Shown: positions 1-44,057, numbered from the whole stretch's first letter. The stretch: 63,875 nt of DNA, filler included, from Porpidia crustulata (GCA_964255105.1; 19 parts of 19 records of this genome joined end to end with filler, not necessarily neighbours in it), one strand, 5' to 3'. A program made the numbers and translations. The notes: generated by a model from the sequence alone, not told the origin.

Positions 1-301
1 GCTAGGCTGGTGGGTTAGGGGAAGGGGTGGATGTTGCGGGCGGTCGTGATGGTGGTTTGCTGAGCGAGGTGGATCCTGTCTGGAGCGTGGTTTGGGTTCG
101 ATGGGACGGATGGCGAGGTTATGAGAGAAAGGCGGGAAACAAGAAGCTGGGAATTCATGGGTCTGAAATGGTAGATATATTGAAAAGATACCTCTTCGCC
201 CCCCACGACCCCGATCCAGGCCAAATCCATACAAAAACCACCATATGTACGTTAAATTCATCTCTACATTATCCCATCATGTTACATATACATATCCGAT
301 C

Positions 302-2113
302 TCATCGAATTTTCCGACCTTCAACCAAACGCCACAACGCCCTCAGCACAGCTAAGCCCCCGCTCTGGGTTTCTACCGTTCGGCCTCGTCCTCTGTTGTT
401 TGGATCCCGTGGCCGATCTGTTCCTGCTGAAGCACCGGTACGATAGATCTCAGGATGGTGCTGAGCTGTCAACGGGTCCTCGTCGGGTAAGCGCCACAGA
501 TCGTCGTCTGGGACCCCTCGATTGCGATAGTCTGTTCCTTCTGAGCTTGGGAGCTCGAAGTCTTCGTCGTGAGATGAAGGCAGGGGATGAGATTCGCGGC
601 CCCACCACATGCCAAACTTGCCGCTGCTGTCTCGAGTCACATATGCGGCTTTCGCATTATGTCTGATCCAAGGGCCGTAATCATCGCACTTCGATTGGTG
701 GGAAGCCGCAAGGTCATCATCAGCTTCGAACATAACTCCATCGCCATGGTCGCCTCGCGGTAGAGGAGCGCAAAACAATGTCAAATGATGAAAGAAAATC
801 CCTTTGAACGTCTGACCATCCTGGCTACAAGTCCCCGAGGAGTCGCAAGCCTCTTCCAATACACCATTGCGACCGAGCCCGGCCCATCGCCACCGGTCAG
901 CCGGGTCGTGGGCGAACCAGCCTGTTGCGATGATAACGTTGCGGATGAGTTCGTGACCGTCATGGAGATAGTGTTCGTGCCCTGTTGCTTCCCATAGCCC
1001 TCTCAAGCCGGATAGAAGCACGCCTTGGTTATAGGTGTACACTTGCTCATCTCTGATGTCGCATTTGCCAGTTCCAACGCTACCGTTCTTTCCCCCTTTC
1101 CAACCGCGGATGTGGAAGCCATCCGTGTATAAACCCCTGTTATTCCTCATATTGCTTTTCCTGAGCCAATCGTATGCTTCTGCTGCGGCGTAAAGGTATC
1201 TAGGATCGTGCGCTTTGGCCGGTGGCGATGCACTTTCTCCGATCCCTTGTTTACTGCTAAACGGAGACGTATTGTCGTCGCCTGGGAAATAAAGGTACAT
1301 GCTCACGCTCGCCGAGATATAGAGCTCGTTCGTGATCGCATTTTTGTACGGTGTGAGGTAGGGATTCCACACCATACCGCCGCCGCAAAGGGACGTATCC
1401 CATCCTTTGGCCGCCAGATCATAAAAGACTCGAGCGCGGTGTGCGAATTGAGGTATAAATTGTTGACCGTACCATCTTGACCCATTCTGGTTGATGCCTC
1501 GATCTCTGTCGTCTCCGGAGAATGCGTATTGTAATTTTGAATGCTGATTGATGAATTTGATGCTCTCCAACCAATCCAACACCACCCAAAGCATGTCATC
1601 GTGGGCTTGCGTTCGCAGGGCGAAGGCATTCTCTCCAAAGTAAAACGCCGTCAATTGCGTGAAATATCGATTGATCAAGTTCTCGTGCTCTTGGATCCGA
1701 TCCAGGACCTCCTCAGGCTTCGCCAAATCGATCGTGCATGCTATTGACTCCGTAAACGCTGAAAGCGTCGCAGAGACGTGCGTTCCCATGACCGCAGCGG
1801 TCCAGTCAATGGCGCTCGGCCAGTCTCCTTGCCAGATCTGAAAGTAGTGCGACTGCATAGTCTCGAGCGCGTCGACGAGGCTGGACAAGGCATTGAGGTC
1901 TTTGAGGGGCGCCCTCTGGTTGTCATACTGTACAGGCGGCCCATAATGAGATATGGAAGGTAGCTGCTGCTGCAAATTGTCCCCAGGACGCGAAGGATTC
2001 CCGCTTAAATACTGCTGCTCCAAACCATCGGTATTATGCGGTAAAGTAATGGTGCCTTGCGGCACCGCGTCAATTATTCGCAAGTAAAGGATCCATAGAA
2101 TAGGGAATATCAT
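302..2113 (-). CDS. Glycoside hydrolase family 76 (alpha-1,6-mannanase/Dfg5-Dcw1-like) protein
   Basis: 603-aa uninterrupted ORF with signal-peptide-like N-terminus, catalytic-type DD motif (AHDDMLWVVL), CGGGMVW, YKNAITNEL, YTYNQG and QTFKGIF motifs typical of GH76. Confidence 0.9.
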   Translation of the reverse strand: MIFPILWILYLRIIDAVPQGTITLPHNTDGLEQQYLSGNPSRPGDNLQQQLPSISHYGPPVQYDNQRAPLKDLNALSSLVDALETMQSHYFQIWQGDWPSAIDWTAAVMGTHVSATLSAFTESIACTIDLAKPEEVLDRIQEHENLINRYFTQLTAFYFGENAFALRTQAHDDMLWVVLDWLESIKFINQHSKLQYAFSGDDRDRGINQNGSRWYGQQFIPQFAHRARVFYDLAAKGWDTSLCGGGMVWNPYLTPYKNAITNELYISASVSMYLYFPGDDNTSPFSSKQGIGESASPPAKAHDPRYLYAAAEAYDWLRKSNMRNNRGLYTDGFHIRGWKGGKNGSVGTGKCDIRDEQVYTYNQGVLLSGLRGLWEATGHEHYLHDGHELIRNVIIATGWFAHDPADRWRWAGLGRNGVLEEACDSSGTCSQDGQTFKGIFFHHLTLFCAPLPRGDHGDGVMFEADDDLAASHQSKCDDYGPWIRHNAKAAYVTRDSSGKFGMWWGRESHPLPSSHDEDFELPSSEGTDYRNRGVPDDDLWRLPDEDPLTAQHHPEIYRTGASAGTDRPRDPNNRGRGRTVETQSGGLAVLRALWRLVEGRKIR

Positions 2114-2483
2114 CGTGCCTGCGTTGAAAGCTCAAAATGCTGCCGCCGTATTCACCTGATCATCTTAAATCCATGCATGAGCGCAAGATCTTGATGGCTG
2201 CCAGCAGCTATACGCAGAGCCACAACGGTATGAAGGTTGGACATGTGGGCCAAGCAATCACATCAGGTTGGCAAGAAACAGAAAGCAGATACTATACAGG
2301 TTCTACGTACTTGCGGGTCCGAAGTAGATGCCCTCAACTTGGAGGCTCAAGCGGGAGATGATGGCATTGACGAGAACCTCACGCTAACCACATCTGGCCA
2401 TAACCCCCATTGCTGTCGCCATGTATCCAGCGGCCTCTTGGCTGCAAAGATGGAGAACAGTTGATTCAAACTACTAAGAACGC

Positions 2484-2493
2484 AAAAGAAAAA
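2484..2493 (-). terminator. Pol III oligo(T) terminator of tRNA-Leu
   Basis: Minus strand reads TTTTTCTTTT starting 8 nt after the discriminator base (2501). Confidence 0.75.
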
Positions 2494-2500
2494 GTTTTGT

Positions 2501-2639
2501 TGACAACTGAGGGATTCGAACTTTATTGCGTTAGTCAAGAACAATTCGATCGTGGGTAGTTGACGTACCCCTCGCTCTTTCGAACAGGTAAGATACAGAA
2601 TTCCTGAAACCTGCGCCATAACCACTCGGCCAAGTTGCC
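2501..2639 (-). tRNA. tRNA-Leu(CAG) with a 12-nt canonical 37/38 intron (2591-2602) and a 48-nt spliceosomal-type intron at 53/54 (2521-2568)
   Basis: Minus strand: GGCAACT TG GCC GAGTGGTTAT GGC G CAGGT TT CAG G [AATTCTGTATCT] T ACCTG TTCGAAAGAGC GAGGG [48 nt] TTCGAAT CCCTC AGTTGTC A. Acceptor, D, anticodon and T stems all pair; long variable arm, G37 and A73 fit Leu; mature length 79 nt. Confidence 0.92.
2521..2568 (-). other. Spliceosomal-type (GT-AG) intron inside the tRNA-Leu T arm
   Basis: GTACGT CAACTACCCACGATCGAATTGTTCTT GACTAAC GCAATAAAG: fungal consensus 5' splice site, branch site RCTAAC and 3' AAG; exact removal gives GAGGG-TTCGAAT-CCCTC. Confidence 0.85.
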
Positions 2640-3329
2640 TTTCGACCAAATGGCCCTTAGCTAAAATATATTGTTTTAAACTGAGTAAATGAGTTGCACG
2701 GGTTGTCCAACTCTCTCCTGCATCTCACTCGTTTTCGACATTACCATCTTTCCAAAGCGGTATTTTCAGTGCAAGTGCAAGAGAGAGTACCAAAATTCAC
2801 AATTGCGCGAAATCGTTTCCTAGGCAAACAATTCCGGCTTTGTCACACAGCATCCGACGTATCGCTGTAGACATCGCATTCAAGGATACGGAGGATTCGC
2901 GATTGACTGTAGTATTGTTCAAAGCCGCTGTTGCCGCAGAGAATTGGTCGTATATGACGAGTCGGAACCCATATAACAATCCAACCCTTTCCATGCTACA
3001 AAATTCGCCTCCAGATTGCAGTCACCACCCTTGAGATTCTCGGAAATCTAACCCTTATCCAAGCACCCTTCCTAGCGCACAATCTCGTAGAATCTCCAAC
3101 GCAACCCCTTCGCATCACTACCAAAGCATTAGCATCATATCTCCCCCAACCAACCAACAAACCCGCTCACCTCGCCGCTCAAGCTTAATACAAGCTGAGT
3201 AACCTCTCCGCCTCCCCGCGTCAGAGATCTCAGCATACCCTCCTTGGGACCCAGACCCTCACTGCTCAATAGTCCCCGTCACCCATAAAATCCATCACTT
3301 GCACCCACCGCCTACTCCCCCTTCACTTC

Positions 3330-3429
3330 NNNNNNNNNNNNNNNNNNNNNNNNNNNNNNNNNNNNNNNNNNNNTTAATTAATTAANNNNNNNNNNNNNNN
3401 NNNNNNNNNNNNNNNNNNNNNNNNNNNNN
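3330..3429. other. Artificial contig linker N44-TTAATTAATTAA-N44 (first of 18)
   Basis: Identical 100-nt stop-codon spacer also at 6757, 10179, 13601, 17018, 20412, 23797, 27174, 30537, 33900, 37259, 40612, 43958, 47302, 50632, 53956, 57277 and 60596; the contigs between them shrink from 3327 to 3219 nt. Confidence 0.99.
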
Positions 3430-6756: not shown

Positions 6757-7211
6757 NNNNNNNNNNNNNNNNNNNNNNNNNNNNNNNNNNNNNNNNNNNN
6801 TTAATTAATTAANNNNNNNNNNNNNNNNNNNNNNNNNNNNNNNNNNNNNNNNNNNNGAATGAGAGGGTGGGGGAGGTGGTGAGGTGTGCGTGTTGCGAGG
6901 ATTTTTTGGGATGTAGAGGAGTGGTGATTTTCGGATTGAAGATTCAATGCAGATGCGGAATTTTCCGCTTTAGGTTGTATCTAAGAGCGCGTTTTGGGCA
7001 CGGCGTATATTTGGATTCATACGAGTAAAGTGAACATGACAAGGAGCATGTTTGGGTATATAAGACTAACCAGAATTTAAGAAGGTCGGAGAATTGCAAT
7101 TGATATTATAACGAGTGTTTTATTATTCTCAGGCCGATTAGCGGGATATAGAGCGATCAAGCCGACAGCGACAAGCTGCAACTTGTATCGACATCCTCCA
7201 CTAACCATTCC

Positions 7212-12241: not shown

Positions 12242-13600
12242 ATGCGATCGTTACGGCCCTTACGGCCTCTTCAACAACTCCATCCTCCTTGCAGCCATCA
12301 ACATTACAATGTGAGGTCTCGACCAATCCAGTCAAGATTCTATCAGCCGGGATCGCGAGGTTCCAAAAATAAACACCGCTCCCAAGTCGAAAAAGCTCTT
12401 TTGACTTCCACCGAGGACAACCCCGATCACCGCACACTGGGCACCGAATATGAACTCTTCAGTACTCACGATTCGAGCCCCGGCTCTCCACTCTTTCACC
12501 CCAATGGCGCCCTGATATTCCAGAAATTACAGTCTTTCCTGCGCGCCCAATACCCCTCCTTCGGCTTTCGCGAAGTCATAACACCAACCATTTACAAAGA
12601 CTCGCTCTGGAAACAGTCGGGCCATTGGGACAACTATCGAGATGACATGTTTTCCGTATCTACGCGCCGTCAGCGTCCAGCCCTTGCTGCGAGGGAGGAA
12701 GCTGCTACGTCACTAGGTGCTTCGCGCACTTCCCGCTCTGCAGGAGTTCTGTTCGAAGGGTTTCAAACAGGAAAGATCATTGAAGATTACGATGACACCC
12801 ACAAAGACAACGACAATTTACAAGGCGAAGGCTATGGTCTGAAACCAATGAATTGCCCAGGTCATTGTCTACTTTTCAAGAGCCGTAAGCTCAGCTACCG
12901 AGAACTCCCCATCCGCTACGCAGATTTCAGCCCTCTACATCGGAGCGAGGCTTCTGGGTCGTTGAGTGGACTGACTCGTGTGCTCCGTTTTCACCAGGAT
13001 GACGGGCACATCTTCTGCCGACCGATCCAAGTGGGCTGTGAAATTGAAAGACAATTAGAATTCATCAACATGGTTTACAAAACCTTTGGCATGAACATTC
13101 ACAAAGTCGTACTGAGCACGCGGCCTTTGGACGGGAAATACATTGGCCAAGTCGATGAGTGGGCAAGAGCAGAAGAGCAGCTGAAAAGCGCCTTGATGGA
13201 CAGCGGACTAAGCTGGGAATTCAACGAAGGCGATGGCGCGTTCTACGGCCCTAAAATCGACATCATCCTCGCCGACTCCGACGGTAAGCAGCACCAAACC
13301 GCCACCATCCAACTCGACTTCCAGCTCCCCAAGCGCTTTGAACTTGAATATGAGGCTCCCGCTCCAGAACAAGAGCGCCTTGGCCTCAAGACCTCCGACC
13401 CAACCCTGCTCGAGCAAAAAGGCATGGTCGTGCCCGTCATGATCCACCGCGCCATCCTCGGCTCCTTTGAGCGCTTCATGGCTCTACTGATCGAACACCA
13501 CAAAGGCCGCTGGCCCTTCTGGCTCTCCCCTCGCCACGCCATTGTCCTCTCGGTCGGCGACAATCCCAAAGTCCATGATTATGCCTCCACCCTCTGCGAC
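12242..13600 (+). CDS. MST1: Mitochondrial threonyl-tRNA synthetase, 3'-truncated
   Basis: DHRTLG, LWKQSGHW, LKPMNCPGHC, GLTRVLRFHQDDGHIFC, GDGAFYGPKID, TIQLDFQLP, IHRAILGSFERF and WPFWLSP motifs; Arg-rich presequence and no N-terminal editing domain. Confidence 0.93.
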
Positions 13601-30923: not shown

Positions 30924-31572
30924 ATGGCGATTCTACCACGATACTCGTATGTCTAAATATCTACATCCAATGTAGCCTTGTAGGAGTCACGCATCCGCTA
31001 ATACATGCCCGTAACAGATGCTACAACAGTAGCTACAATAGCAACGACTACTGTTATAGCTCTTGGGATTCCTATGGCCGTTACATAGTTATTGCTGCAG
31101 TCATCGCTGGAGGTTTCTTCATCTTCTTCATGTTCGCGTAAGTCATCCAGGACTGTCTTGTTCTGTACACAAGGACTAACCAAGCCGCAGTTGTGTTACC
31201 GCTCGTAGACGTCGTCAATCTGGCATGCAGCCATACCGTGGTACTGGTTGGGCCGCCGGGAGGACACCGCCTGGCCACGCACCTGCACAATACACTGGCG
31301 CCCAACCGTATTACGCTGGCAACAACAATCCGCAATACAACGCTGCTGCTGCGCCCGGTGTCAATGGTGCGCCTCCTGTATATTCTCCGGCTCCGAATCA
31401 AACATACTACGGAAACAACCAAGCCGAACATGGGTATTTTGGTGGTCAGCAGCAGTCTGGAATCGAGCTGCAACAGCCGCAAAGCGTATACCAGCCGCAG
31501 AGAGGTGGCGACCCAGTCTACAGCCCTCCAAGCGGTCCGCCACCAGGAAAGGGTGATGGCATCATCAGGTAG
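30924..31572 (+). CDS. Chitin synthesis regulation / Congo red resistance (RCR-type) small membrane protein
   Basis: Three exons: SSWDSYGRYIV-TM-ARRRRQSGMQPYRGTGW followed by a P/Q/Y-rich tail with PPVY and YSPPSGPPP. Confidence 0.75.
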
Positions 31573-40611: not shown

Positions 40612-41067
40612 NNNNNNNNNNNNNNNNNNNNNNNNNNNNNNNNNNNNNNNNNNNNTTAATTAATTAANNNNNNNNNNNNNNNNNNNNNNNNNNNNNNNNN
40701 NNNNNNNNNNNGGGTGGGAGATGGGGGTGGTGAATGTAATGAGTATCAAAAGCGTGACTCCATCTTGTAATTGGTGTGTGAAATACCAAATGAATCTGTA
40801 AATCTCTGGCGGTATAATCGAACATGCGGATTGATTTGTGAGCGTATACGTTTTGATTACGGACAGCAACGTGACCATCGGTGGTGTGACGAAAAGGGCC
40901 GGATCTCGGAAAAATTCATGTACATTGATAGAGACCTGGGGATGCTCATATGAAGAGGAGATGGGTAAGGGAGCTGCGCGCGCGGGTGATCAGTTGAGTT
41001 GATATTATATCGAGCTATATATGTTCGAGTTGGGGATCGTAGTCATTTTTCGCAATCAAGTAAATTG

Positions 41068-41086
41068 TATATATATATTATAAAAA
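41068..41086 (+). promoter_or_regulatory. Upstream TATA element of tRNA-Gly
   Basis: TATATATATATTATAAAAA, with TATAAAAA starting 30 nt upstream of the mature tRNA 5' end. Confidence 0.6.
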
Positions 41087-41108
41087 GAAGACATTCTACC
41101 ATGTAGTA

Positions 41109-41237
41109 GCGTTAGTGGGTAAGTCACAATGTCTACATTACCACAATGTCTTCGCTAACAGCCACAAAGTTTAGTGGTAAAATTCGTCGTTGCCATACTG
41201 TATCGACGAGCCGGGGGTTCGATTCCCTCCTAACGCA
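41109..41237 (+). tRNA. tRNA-Gly(GCC) with a 51-nt spliceosomal-type intron at 10/11 (41119-41169) and a 7-nt canonical 37/38 intron (41196-41202)
   Basis: GCGTTAG TG G [51 nt] TTT AGTGGTA AAAT T CGTCG TT GCC A [TACTGTA] T CGACG AGCC GGGGG TTCGATT CCCTC CTAACGC A; perfect acceptor and anticodon stems; 71-nt mature fungal tRNA-Gly. Confidence 0.94.
41119..41169 (+). other. Spliceosomal-type (GT-AG) intron inside the tRNA-Gly D stem / A box
   Basis: GTAAGT CACAATGTCTACATTACCACAATGTCTTC GCTAAC AGCCACAAAG: perfect 5' splice site, branch site and 3' AAG; exact removal restores TGGTTTAGTGG. Confidence 0.88.
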
Positions 41238-41249
41238 CAACGTTCAATA

Positions 41250-41286
41250 TTTTTCCTTTTTTTATTTTTTTGTTTTTTTGTTTTTT
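41250..41286 (+). terminator. Pol III oligo(T) terminator of tRNA-Gly
   Basis: Five T5-T7 runs beginning 13 nt after the discriminator base. Confidence 0.85.
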
Positions 41287-42497
41287 AGAATACTCGAACG
41301 ACTACCTTCCTACCTTCCTACTTAAGTTATTGAGCCTTCATACCTAGTTGGATTATAATCTACGTCATCTACTTTAGAGCGCCACTACTGGTTTGATGCA
41401 ATTGTGACTTGTTTGCTTTATGTTCCTCTTACGCAGGTTGCAAACCGCGGCGTTCTACATGTGTTCCTATCATTGATCTACTTGTTTTACTGAGGCGAGT
41501 CAGTGACGAGATGGGTCAACAGCTTTCGGTTTGGAGACTGATGTAGATAAGGTGAGGGTGCGAACGAGTATGGTGAAGATTGATAGACTGAAATACATCT
41601 AGGATACCTGGGTCTCTGGAGTTCCACCAGCTATCACAACGCCACCCTTCACACTTCACACTTCAGGCAGTAAAGACAGAATGCCATGAATATGGGATCG
41701 GGGCGCCTCAGCTACGGAAAACTTTTCTTTCCTGTTCCATGCTCGAGTTGGCTTTTTCACATCTTGGAGACATTGCTTCACAACATTTACTGTATAATTG
41801 ATTCCGTTAAGGACACCATTAAGTTCCCCAAGGAATATACGAACCCGAGAAAGAATGGCTGCCTTACAGCGTTTTCTTTCACGTTTTCCTTATCCTTTGC
41901 TTTCGCTGCTATATTACTGGTGCTTCTTGGCTTCTTCACAACTATTCTATCGGATTTATTCATTCTCCTCGCAATTTTGTCATTGGAGTTAGGCATCAAT
42001 ACTCGATGCAACGTGATGAAGGGCGCTATATTCCCGATGAGGACATCTATGGAGCCGTATCCGAACGTCTTGCATGCAAAATCCAATTTGAGAGGGCAAT
42101 GAATTTGGTTTTTGGACCTTCGCGTTGCACCAACAAGTCGATGGCTGCGTTCTGTTGGCTATGCCTGAAGCCTTCATCGAATATTGCTTTCGTAGCATTC
42201 ATCGTGCGCGGTCATTAACTAATTTTCAATACTATGAATCTCAATTTGTATCGTTCGTTCCTTGATAATGTCACCAAGATCTTGGATACATAAGGGCTAG
42301 CTATGCCCACTGGCTTCTTTTCTCAGCAGGAGGTAGAATTGAGAGCGTACAACAAAACCAAGCAAATCCATTCTTACTAAGCTAACAGAATCATATTTGA
42401 GCCCACATCTTCTCGAGCATCAAATACTTCGTGATAAAAGGATCTACTTCATACAAACCCATTTTCGGTACGAAATCTCGGCTTCTACGAATCTAGT

Positions 42498-43304
42498 ATG
42501 GGGCCTAGACCCTCTGAGAGATGGATCTGTGACCCTTGCTCAACAGCCAACGAGGCTTTCTCCATCAAGTGCGCATACTGCGATCTTGATTATGATCCAA
42601 GACGCTGTCGGACGGCGGAACCAGTTGGTTTCCGTGGATCTTATGTTCGCCAGTCTTCGCAAGCCTCTGGAGAAAATGAACGATTGGGTCTACTGAACCC
42701 CTCCACTGGAAATGACAATAGCCAAGTGCAGCAAATCCCTCAACAGAATCGACAAACAGAACTTTCAACTAACTCTCCTGTCTATCCTACTGGTCAAGTG
42801 CACCAAAGATCTCAACGGACCATACAACCATTTCTATTGCAGAGGTTCACCTCCCACGATGATCAAGCGTCGGCCTCGCAGCATGATAATCTCAACTTCG
42901 CTCCCTACTCAAATCTGCATGGCAGCTTACATGACCCTTTAGTCCGCCGTCATGATGAAACCTATGACCAGTACATAGAAAGGCGTGCGAGAATACGACT
43001 TGAGTGGCCGGAAGAAGAAAGATTATTGGTGAGGCAGCAAGGAGACTTGAACCTCGTGTTCTATGGAACTCGTACGCCCCGAGTTCCATTTTCCCACCGA
43101 CCAGCGGCGCAGAACTCCCAACCCGACGACGAAGAATCCGGCGACGAAGAATCCACCGACAAAAGCTACGCGCCCTCCAAGGTTTCCCGTGGAAAGCAAA
43201 AACGTACGCGAGATTCGCCCAGCGACGATGGTGGTGACGGGAAGGGTGGCACAGAGAAGGTCACTTGGACGCCAATAAAACAAGCTAGAAAGAGTTACTC
43301 TTAA
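42498..43304 (+). CDS. Hypothetical protein with N-terminal RanBP2-type zinc finger
   Basis: WICDPCSTANEAFSIKCAYC matches W-x-C-x2-C-x3-N-x6-C-x2-C exactly; the remainder is low-complexity. Confidence 0.65.
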   Translation: MGPRPSERWICDPCSTANEAFSIKCAYCDLDYDPRRCRTAEPVGFRGSYVRQSSQASGENERLGLLNPSTGNDNSQVQQIPQQNRQTELSTNSPVYPTGQVHQRSQRTIQPFLLQRFTSHDDQASASQHDNLNFAPYSNLHGSLHDPLVRRHDETYDQYIERRARIRLEWPEEERLLVRQQGDLNLVFYGTRTPRVPFSHRPAAQNSQPDDEESGDEESTDKSYAPSKVSRGKQKRTRDSPSDDGGDGKGGTEKVTWTPIKQARKSYS

Positions 43305-44057
43305 TCAGTATGTACGTGGGGTGAGGAGGGAGCACATGAGCGGAGGAGAGGACGTGGTCGGGGGCAGATCCAAAAGCGTGCTTTTCCGCGGTCGGGGTAG
43401 TAATGGGCGGGGTGTGGTGTTTCGATTTGCCAAGAGTAATGACGGTCATATTTCGGGTGTTAATGTTCAGGATAATGTGGATGATAGACGGTACGATGGA
43501 GATTTCGGTTATATTATTGTTCCAATCAACTTTCACTTCCGATATCTTCCTCGCCGTCGCACCGAAATGCCCCGTCTTCTTCGAGAAGTGAAAGACGGTC
43601 GTGCGGGAGGGTACACCCACAGAAAAGCTTCATCGCGTGAACGTCGCAGCAAAGCAGCATCGCTCCCAACATCGAAACCCCCGCGCGCCCGAAGTCTCCC
43701 ACACATACCGTTCCCCGCGTAATTCCAATCGCAAAAACATCTGCTTTCCCCAAATCTTCTAATAACAGCCTCTTTCCTCATCACGCTCCCCCTCCGACAG
43801 ACATTTATTGCTACAAATCTTTGAGATACGCTGCAAACAGTGCTCGAAGAAGTGGGAATGGCGCTTAAATTCACGGAGTAGAAGGAGGGATGCGGAATGA
43901 GCGGTTGAATGTAGGGAAGAGGCGGGATGGTTGTTGAGGTGCGGGAGGATGGGGAAGNNNNNNNNNNNNNNNNNNNNNNNNNNNNNNNNNNNNNNNNNNN
44001 NTTAATTAATTAANNNNNNNNNNNNNNNNNNNNNNNNNNNNNNNNNNNNNNNNNNNN

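Follow-up and report, generated by a model that had tools for sequence, protein, structure and literature searches.

A spliceosomal-type intron in the T arm of an ascomycete tRNA-Leu(CAG) gene

Textbooks and reviews assign the introns of messenger RNA (mRNA) to the spliceosome and those of nuclear tRNAs to a protein endonuclease that acts at one fixed position, a divide that a tRNA in need of both machineries would break. Spliceosomal introns are known from RNA genes that are not transcribed by RNA polymerase II (Pol II), and Bhattacharya et al. reportedly described them in 2000 in the ribosomal DNA (rDNA) of lichen-forming ascomycetes. According to PMC8527467, these rDNA introns are ectopic, and yeast spliceosomes remove one of them (57 nt) from transcripts of RNA polymerase I (Pol I), “bending the general rule.” The sole U6 gene of Schizosaccharomyces pombe, which is transcribed by RNA polymerase III (Pol III), has an intron that the spliceosome removes (Tani & Ohshima, 1989/1991; Canzler et al., 2016; both as summarised in PMC5855946), and the list of noncoding RNA hosts of spliceosomal introns in that review names U6, U2, U5, U1 and rRNA, with tRNA absent. 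A tRNA gene would be a host of a class in which current reviews say that such introns do not occur. Here we examine a tRNA-Leu(CAG) gene of 139 nt (2501–2639, minus strand) in a 63,875-nt stretch of Porpidia crustulata DNA (GCA_964255105.1), the whole of which we call the window, whose T arm is split between G53 and U54 by a 48-nt insert (2521–2568) bearing the signals of a spliceosomal intron. We put at roughly 65% the probability that this is a functional, Pol III-transcribed tRNA-Leu(CAG) gene of an ascomycete, with its T arm split by a U2-type spliceosomal intron, so that its transcript would need the spliceosome.

The comparison with U6 is the closest, as both would be Pol III genes for small noncoding RNAs with a short intron whose two splice sites and branch site are canonical. 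Fungal U6 introns are unrelated between species and are proposed to have arisen by reverse splicing, much as we suppose for the tRNA-Leu gene, and the B-box match that Schizosaccharomyces U6 introns contain, to go by the title of Frendewey (1990; cited in PMC5855946), has its parallel in a tRNA-Leu B box rebuilt at an intron/exon junction. The two systems differ in that a tRNA is not a component of the spliceosome, so “proximity to the active site” offers no explanation for the insertion, and in that the tRNA-Leu gene also has an intron of the kind that the tRNA endonuclease removes, which would bring two splicing systems to bear on one transcript. With the lichen rDNA introns the tRNA-Leu insert shares a short length, an ectopic position, an ascomycete host and residence in a highly expressed gene for a structured RNA made by a polymerase other than Pol II; the polymerase and product are Pol I and rRNA there and, presumably, Pol III and tRNA here, and removal has been proven experimentally for the rDNA intron. 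Cyanidioschyzon merolae and archaea offer a likeness of another kind, namely tRNA genes (nuclear ones in C. merolae) interrupted up to three times, with introns in both the D arm and the T arm (53/54 among the sites) and at 37/38. Those introns are defined by a bulge-helix-bulge (BHB) and removed by the tRNA endonuclease—PMC3728597 frames all ectopic nuclear tRNA introns of C. merolae, one of them at 53/54, as BHB-mediated—whereas the tRNA-Leu insert has no BHB and reads GT..CTAAC..AG instead. No description of spliceosomal introns in tRNA genes was found in the literature searched, which left subscription journals largely outside, and a prior description is possible.

The window comprises 19 unlinked contigs of ~3.2–3.3 kb each, arranged from longest to shortest and joined by 18 spacers (N44-TTAATTAATTAA-N44, e.g., 3330–3429 and 6757–6856), such that features on opposite sides of a spacer are not genomic neighbours; the tRNA-Leu gene lies on the first piece (1–3329). 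Read on the minus strand from 2639 to 2501, this gene spells a type-II tRNA in three exons and two introns, with acceptor strands GGCAACT/AGTTGTC, a D arm, a long variable arm and A73. Exon 1 (2603–2639) supplies tRNA positions 1–37, i.e., the 5′ acceptor strand, the D arm, the 5′ strand of the anticodon stem, the anticodon CAG and G37, and it contains at positions 8–18 an intact A box (TGGCCGAGTGG; 2622–2632; consensus TRGCNNAGTGG). A canonical tRNA intron of 12 nt follows at 37/38 (AATTCTGTATCT; 2591–2602; i(38,12) in the notation of ARAGORN), within which a CTG complements the anticodon, as is typical of eukaryotic tRNA introns, and the minimum free energy (MFE) fold pairs anticodon and intron in a helix. 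Exon 2 (2569–2590) holds position 38, the 3′ strand of the anticodon stem (CAGGT/ACCTG, loop TTCAGG+N), the variable arm and the 5′ strand of the T stem (GAGGG). The 48-nt insert then opens, after an exon G, with a 5′ splice site GTACGT (2563–2568), continues to a branch-site motif GACTAAC (2530–2536), whose presumed branch A (2531) is 10 nt away from the 3′ end, and closes with a 3′ splice site AG (2521–2522, in AAAG at 2521–2524). Exon 3 (2501–2520) completes the molecule with the T loop TTCGAAT, the 3′ strand of the T stem (CCCTC), the 3′ acceptor strand AGTTGTC and A73.

An earlier note on this DNA had described the insert as GTACGT..GACTAAC..AAAG between G53 and U54, had claimed that its exact excision rebuilds the tRNA and had placed a run of five T (T5) behind the gene. 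On re-reading the sequence, the insert is exact; its removal restores the T stem GAGGG/CCCTC and T loop TTCGAAT, after which ARAGORN calls tRNA-Leu(cag); and the T5 is present at 2489–2493. The gene anatomy in that note stands as to the 48-nt insert and the stems but overlooked the 12-nt canonical intron, which must also be removed.

The gene is called as tRNA-Leu only when the insert is taken out. ARAGORN made no tRNA call on the intact window and, with lowered thresholds, only a single mis-modelled one (“SeC,” with a 63-nt anticodon intron); after excision of 2521–2568 it called tRNA-Leu(cag) and placed a 12-nt intron at position 38. We then excised, in turn, every GT..AG segment of 30–200 nt on both strands (n = 73,104) and ran each product through ARAGORN. 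Five products yielded a tRNA call, all from two loci: one was the exact 2521–2568 excision, two fell at a tRNA-Gly locus and two were opposite-strand deletions at the tRNA-Leu locus (2530–2598 and 2534–2598). These last gave shorter calls, remove a different segment and are not GT–AG on the strand of the gene, and we regard them as artefacts. In a permissive run, the Rfam tRNA model RF00005 aligned 2639–2501 end to end (model positions 1–71) at 26.5 bits, compared with a gathering threshold of 29, and opened two gaps, a 15-nt one in the anticodon loop and a 55-nt one in the T loop. No uninterrupted tRNA was found in the 19 contigs by ARAGORN or by Rfam at E ≤ 1, such that both of the two tRNA-like loci detected there are interrupted.

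The boundaries that the cloverleaf sets for the insert are ambiguous by 1 nt, owing to a shared G, and the GT–AG register is one of two equivalents. At these boundaries all three signals are found, i.e., a 5′ GTRNGT after an exon G, a CTRAC branch motif and a 3′ AG. The same pattern (GTRNGT..CTRAC..AG, with the branch A 8–14 nt from the end), sought among all 48- and 51-nt segments of the window, was matched by 2 of 244,610, and both are tRNA inserts—the one in tRNA-Leu and the one in tRNA-Gly—which corresponds to ~10⁻⁵ per insert. The credible candidates for mRNA introns in the window, identified by a heuristic that joins open reading frames (ORFs) and is too noisy to support statistics, are 47–101 nt long, with 5′ splice sites GTAAGT, GTACGT or GTGAGT and branch motifs CTAAC, CTAAT or CTGAT; one example of 47 nt (31138–31184, GTAAGTCA..GACTAACCAAG) may share the style of the tRNA inserts.

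The signals expected around a Pol III gene are likewise in place. A B-box-like AGTTCGAATCC (2512–2522, minus strand), which matches GGTTCGANTCC at 10 of 11 positions, is composed of the terminal AG of the intron and the start of exon 3; because the last G of the intron can take the place of G53, a B box can still be read from the DNA across the junction. The T5 run, which resembles a Pol III terminator, begins 8 nt past A73 on the minus strand and is followed by a run of four T (T4; 2484–2487), while no T4 run occurs inside the 48-nt insert. A putative TATA-like element (TATATTTT; 2663–2670, minus strand) lies 24–31 nt upstream of position 1. The A box, the rebuilt B box, the T5 run and the TATA-like element are together compatible with transcription by Pol III.

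The second interrupted gene, tRNA-Gly(GCC), lies on the thirteenth piece of the window (40712–43957) at 41109–41237 on the plus strand, where it was recognised by excision followed by ARAGORN and by Rfam RF00005. It has a 51-nt spliceosomal-type intron (41119–41169; GTAAGT..GCTAAC..AAAG) between positions 10 and 11, in the D stem and inside the A box, and a 7-nt canonical intron. Excision of 41119–41169 or of 41123–41174 gives tRNA-Gly(gcc) with the 7-nt intron in ARAGORN, and the RF00005 match (model positions 9–63, 28.2 bits) starts directly after the 51-nt insert. The insert at the canonical position (~41196–41202) is unusually short at 7 nt, and the gene has a TATA-rich stretch upstream and several T runs downstream. 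That the tRNA-Leu and tRNA-Gly inserts represent independent gains, as had been proposed, is a reasonable position: they occupy different genes and different positions (53/54 and 10/11), and the alignment of their interiors is barely better than that of shuffled sequence (score 40 vs. 25 ± 5; 2 of 500 shuffles reach 40, under a control that destroys the shared CTAAC).

Comparison with public sequencing runs shows the same tRNA without the insert. Three runs (X1, X2 and X3) were compared with window positions 1500–3329 at a likeness of at least 80%. The locus itself occurs in one of them only, X1—a run of unknown kind that is possibly the assembly’s own source—as a single 3,187-nt contig, identical throughout, with a word depth of 9.6; X2 and X3, from the same study, represent other organisms, here called organism B and organism C. 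A 5,078-nt contig of organism B matches 2499–2520 and 2569–2639, and the joint skips exactly 2521–2568, 48 nt that read CT..AC on the plus strand and thus GT..AG on the strand of the gene. All nine inserted letters of this contig fall at 2594–2602, inside the canonical intron, as does one of its two substitutions (2601), which leaves at most one difference in 91 exon nucleotides. Organism B is not a close relative, as its coding pieces for a glycosidase of family GH76 are only ~80–88% alike with those of the window. Because at most 1 of 91 exon positions differs despite this ~80–88% coding likeness, the exons of the interrupted tRNA-Leu gene are, on this comparison, undecayed. The flanks of the organism B tRNA are unlike those of the window; orthology is therefore unproven, and gain of the intron here and its loss there cannot be told apart. 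As to the earlier suggestion that splicing may be needed to decode CUG if this is the only tRNA-Leu(CAG) copy, some fungi can decode CUG through wobble with tRNA-Leu(UAG), and even a single copy would therefore not make the gene essential by itself.

Two further contigs from these runs touch the same gene. A second contig of organism B (27,585 nt) has a Leu-like type-II tRNA gene of ~150 nt, aligned with window positions 2501–2521 and 2610–2640; its first 30 and last 21 nt are common with the window gene, the 98 letters between them cannot be aligned, and GH76-like pieces lie 10.5 kb away on that contig. This may be a second interrupted gene. A 75-nt contig of organism C lies on window positions 2569–2635 and ends within a few letters of the boundary between exon 2 and the insert, which might reflect gene copies that diverge there, although a contig end proves nothing.

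The architecture recurs in metagenomes. An exon-anchored scan for the tRNA-Leu gene itself that was agnostic to the intron (GCGAGGG N30–60 TTCGAATCCCTCAGTTG) gave no metagenome match, and hence no series of orthologues for this intron. A broader pattern (G + GTANGT, 20–45 nt, CTAAC, 4–18 nt, AG + TTCGAATCC) returned 13 metagenome loci, numbered L001–L013, six of which (five distinct sequences) turn into tRNAs only after excision. A single excision restores a tRNA, where the intact locus gives no call, in L006 and L008 (Leu-TAG) and in the identical L007 and L010 (Leu-TAG). Two more, L003 and L012, need a further excision, in the D arm, before they become tRNA-Leu(TAA) and tRNA-Pro(CGG); the inserts there are GTACGT..CTGAT..TAG (53 nt, in the D loop) and GTTAGT..ACTAAC..CAG (52 nt, at 10/11, the same site as in the window tRNA-Gly), respectively. 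These D-arm inserts lay outside the demands of the search pattern. Both genes also have canonical introns, of 12 and 30 nt, and each thus shows, on the minus strand of its locus, three interruptions (D-arm insert, 37/38 intron and 53/54 insert). T5 runs directly end the interrupted genes in L003, L006, L007 and L012.

The remaining 7 of the 13 loci (L001, identical to L011, and L002, L004, L005, L009 and L013) gave no tRNA even after a second excision, and the L001/L011 sequence is identical to an Acidobacteriaceae metagenome-assembled genome. As a control, the same pattern applied to 596 Gb of prokaryote genomes found two matches, neither of which restores a tRNA and one of which is this same Acidobacteriaceae sequence.

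Between L006 and L008, differences number 0 in 80 exon nucleotides, 1 in 16 of the canonical intron and 2 in 53 of the insert (one of them changes GTATGT/GTAAGT), as opposed to 25 in 330 and 53 in 395 in the two flanks (~8–13%). To judge by these counts, the interrupted gene is one that has been kept intact while its surroundings diverged. All nine inserts (those of the window tRNA-Leu and tRNA-Gly and of L003, L006, L007, L008 and L012) place the branch A 10–12 nt from the 3′ end, measure 48–53 nt and are G-poor (14% G) and A/C-rich. They are more uniform in branch distance, length and composition than the mRNA-intron candidates of the window. On these comparisons, the tRNA-Leu insert is a member of a class found in tRNA genes of several organisms, where two G|U sites inside the promoter boxes, 10/11 and 53/54, are used repeatedly.

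If the gene functions as its sequence suggests, TFIIIC would bind the intact A box (2622–2632) and the rebuilt B box (2512–2522), and Pol III would make a transcript of ~150 nt that ends at the T5 run. U1 would then recognise GUACGU and U2 GACUAAC, a 48-nt lariat with branch A2531 would be released and G53 would be joined to U54; the T loop could form because the spliceosome, as we propose, makes this junction. RNase P and RNase Z would trim the ends, the Sen endonuclease and a ligase would take out the 12-nt intron at 37/38 and CCA would be added, with the spliceosomal step taking place first, or at some point, before end processing. The intron most likely has the origin proposed for those of fungal U6 genes: reverse splicing would have placed it in an abundant tRNA or pre-tRNA, and reverse transcription with recombination would then have carried it into the gene.

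Several points weigh against this reading. The tRNA-Leu insert ends in AAG rather than YAG, and AAG is the less frequent 3′ end in fungal introns. The A box and the B box are ~110 nt apart, a spacing above the usual. Runs of four or more T occur in none of the eight distinct inserts, which is not a significant depletion (P ~0.26–0.31 under three null models). In the metagenome loci, the GTANGT, CTAAC and AG of the T-arm inserts were demanded by the search pattern, so that only the restoration of a tRNA is independent; the filter for the D-arm candidates of L003 and L012 likewise demanded GT..CTRAY..AG, and the constraint seen between L006 and L008 belongs to a different gene in different organisms. 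The intron-less tRNA of organism B implies that the intron is dispensable in principle, and an intron-less paralogue may exist elsewhere in the genome of this fungus. A search of public sequencing runs over window positions 2200–3000 returned no RNA run, and with it no junction read, lariat or mature tRNA. Finally, published accounts describe tRNA splicing without the spliceosome (PMC10275265; PMC13149111), and PMC8450103 limits eukaryotic tRNA genes to one intron.

Some of these points would also fit a dead gene, in which a real spliceosomal intron was inserted by retroposition, the Pol III transcript is not usefully spliced and a recent pseudogene leaves the work to intron-less paralogues. 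The lack of an RNA run for the locus, the textbook view that tRNAs mature without the spliceosome, the intron-less form of the same tRNA in organism B and the possibility of intron-less paralogues in this genome are all on its side, and we consider it the strongest of the alternatives, though an unlikely one. A pseudogene would have to have kept its exons intact (no more than one difference in 91 from organism B, at a coding likeness of ~80–88%) along with its promoter boxes and terminator, in a window where both tRNA loci are interrupted. It would also have to accommodate the 0 of 80 exon differences between L006 and L008 beside 8–13% in their flanks, and L003 and L012, where two such introns sit in one otherwise perfect gene, are hard to square with inactivation by a single hit.

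Another route would leave the gene functional and spliced but change the polymerase. Splicing is normally coupled to Pol II, and the tRNA shares its strand with the GH76-like ORF (302–2113, minus strand; its nearest Atlas clusters are from Ascomycota), just upstream of which it lies and whose ATG is 388 nt downstream of the tRNA; a TATA-like element stands upstream. The tRNA could thus be embedded in a longer Pol II transcript, for instance upstream of the GH76 gene or in its 5′ untranslated region, be spliced co-transcriptionally and be released by RNase P and RNase Z. We hold this improbable, given the canonical A box, the preserved B box and the T5 run directly behind the gene; T5 runs end L003, L006, L007 and L012 too, and nothing in these data requires Pol II.

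The possibility that the insert is a non-canonical tRNA intron excised by a protein nuclease, be it the tRNA splicing endonuclease or some other, with GT..CTAAC..AG a coincidence, takes its appeal from the position: 53/54 is a known site of endonuclease-mediated removal, used by the 22-nt BHB intron of C. merolae tRNA-Ile(UAU), according to PMC3728597. Introns of this kind are marked by a BHB or its relaxed hBH/HBh′ form; the geometry that we sought had 3-nt bulges cleaved past their second nucleotide, a central helix of 4 bp between them and helices on either flank. The tRNA-Leu insert forms 0 of 4 and 1 of 4 central pairs in its two equivalent registers, the flanking helices fail for the tRNA-Gly insert, and the MFE folds of the inserts are without such a motif. 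Because the insert cannot form a BHB, the tRNA endonuclease is an unlikely agent of its removal, and the full signal set at fixed boundaries, with a chance of ~10⁻⁵ per insert, recurs in nine inserts, which together make this explanation very doubtful indeed.

Other intron types fare no better. A self-splicing group I or group II intron has a core of hundreds of nucleotides, compared with the 48 nt here, and no Rfam intron family matched at E ≤ 1. The insert is not the canonical tRNA intron either, as it lies at 53/54 and not at 37/38, where the separate 12-nt insert is found. As regards a mobile intron family (an introner), no second copy of either tRNA insert was present within the 63.9-kb window, the best other match being 10 nt. 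An artefact of assembly or a chimera, such that the 48 nt are not in the DNA of the organism, is hardly credible: the assembly is fragmented and of low depth (contigs of ~3.3 kb) and the sole run with the locus may be its own source, but the X1 contig of 3,187 nt is identical at a word depth of 9.6, the same architecture occurs in independent metagenome contigs and an artefact would not give perfect splice signals at cloverleaf boundaries.

The earlier note’s central claim, that the insert is an intron of the spliceosomal type, therefore retains the support of the three signals, the lack of a BHB, the exact absence of the segment from organism B and the recurring class, with splicing itself being what these features predict. 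Elsewhere in the window, which has a GC content of ~48%, Rfam gives a weak hit for ssnA, a bacterial RNA motif (12245–12304, minus strand; 23.3 bits vs. a gathering threshold of 37.3, E = 0.1), which is most likely due to chance.

The interest of these observations hinges on proof from RNA. Some consequences apply to annotation, as ARAGORN made no call and Rfam scored below threshold on such genes; this would be a blind spot of the standard tRNA finders, and fungal genomes could seem to be without tRNAs that are actually present. A wider generalisation, which we offer tentatively and at somewhat less than even odds, is that in some ascomycetes the spliceosome is a routine, and perhaps obligatory, part of tRNA maturation. 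A large share of tRNA genes (two of two sampled here) would be interrupted at G|U hot spots at 10/11 and 53/54, within the A and B boxes, with the terminal AG of the intron keeping the box readable, and some genes would undergo three splicing events by two machineries. The recurrence of insertion sites in promoter boxes suggests a rule, open to testing, about the kinds of intron gain that a Pol III gene can withstand. If our reading is correct, tRNA would join the short list of RNAs not made by Pol II that are spliced by the spliceosome (U6, rRNA), and these genes would form a natural system for studying how Pol III transcripts come to be recognised by the spliceosome and which of the two splicing systems acts first. 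The supply of tRNA, and hence the capacity for translation, would then be tied to the availability of the spliceosome, an effect comparable to that proposed on ribosome supply for the introns of lichen rDNA.

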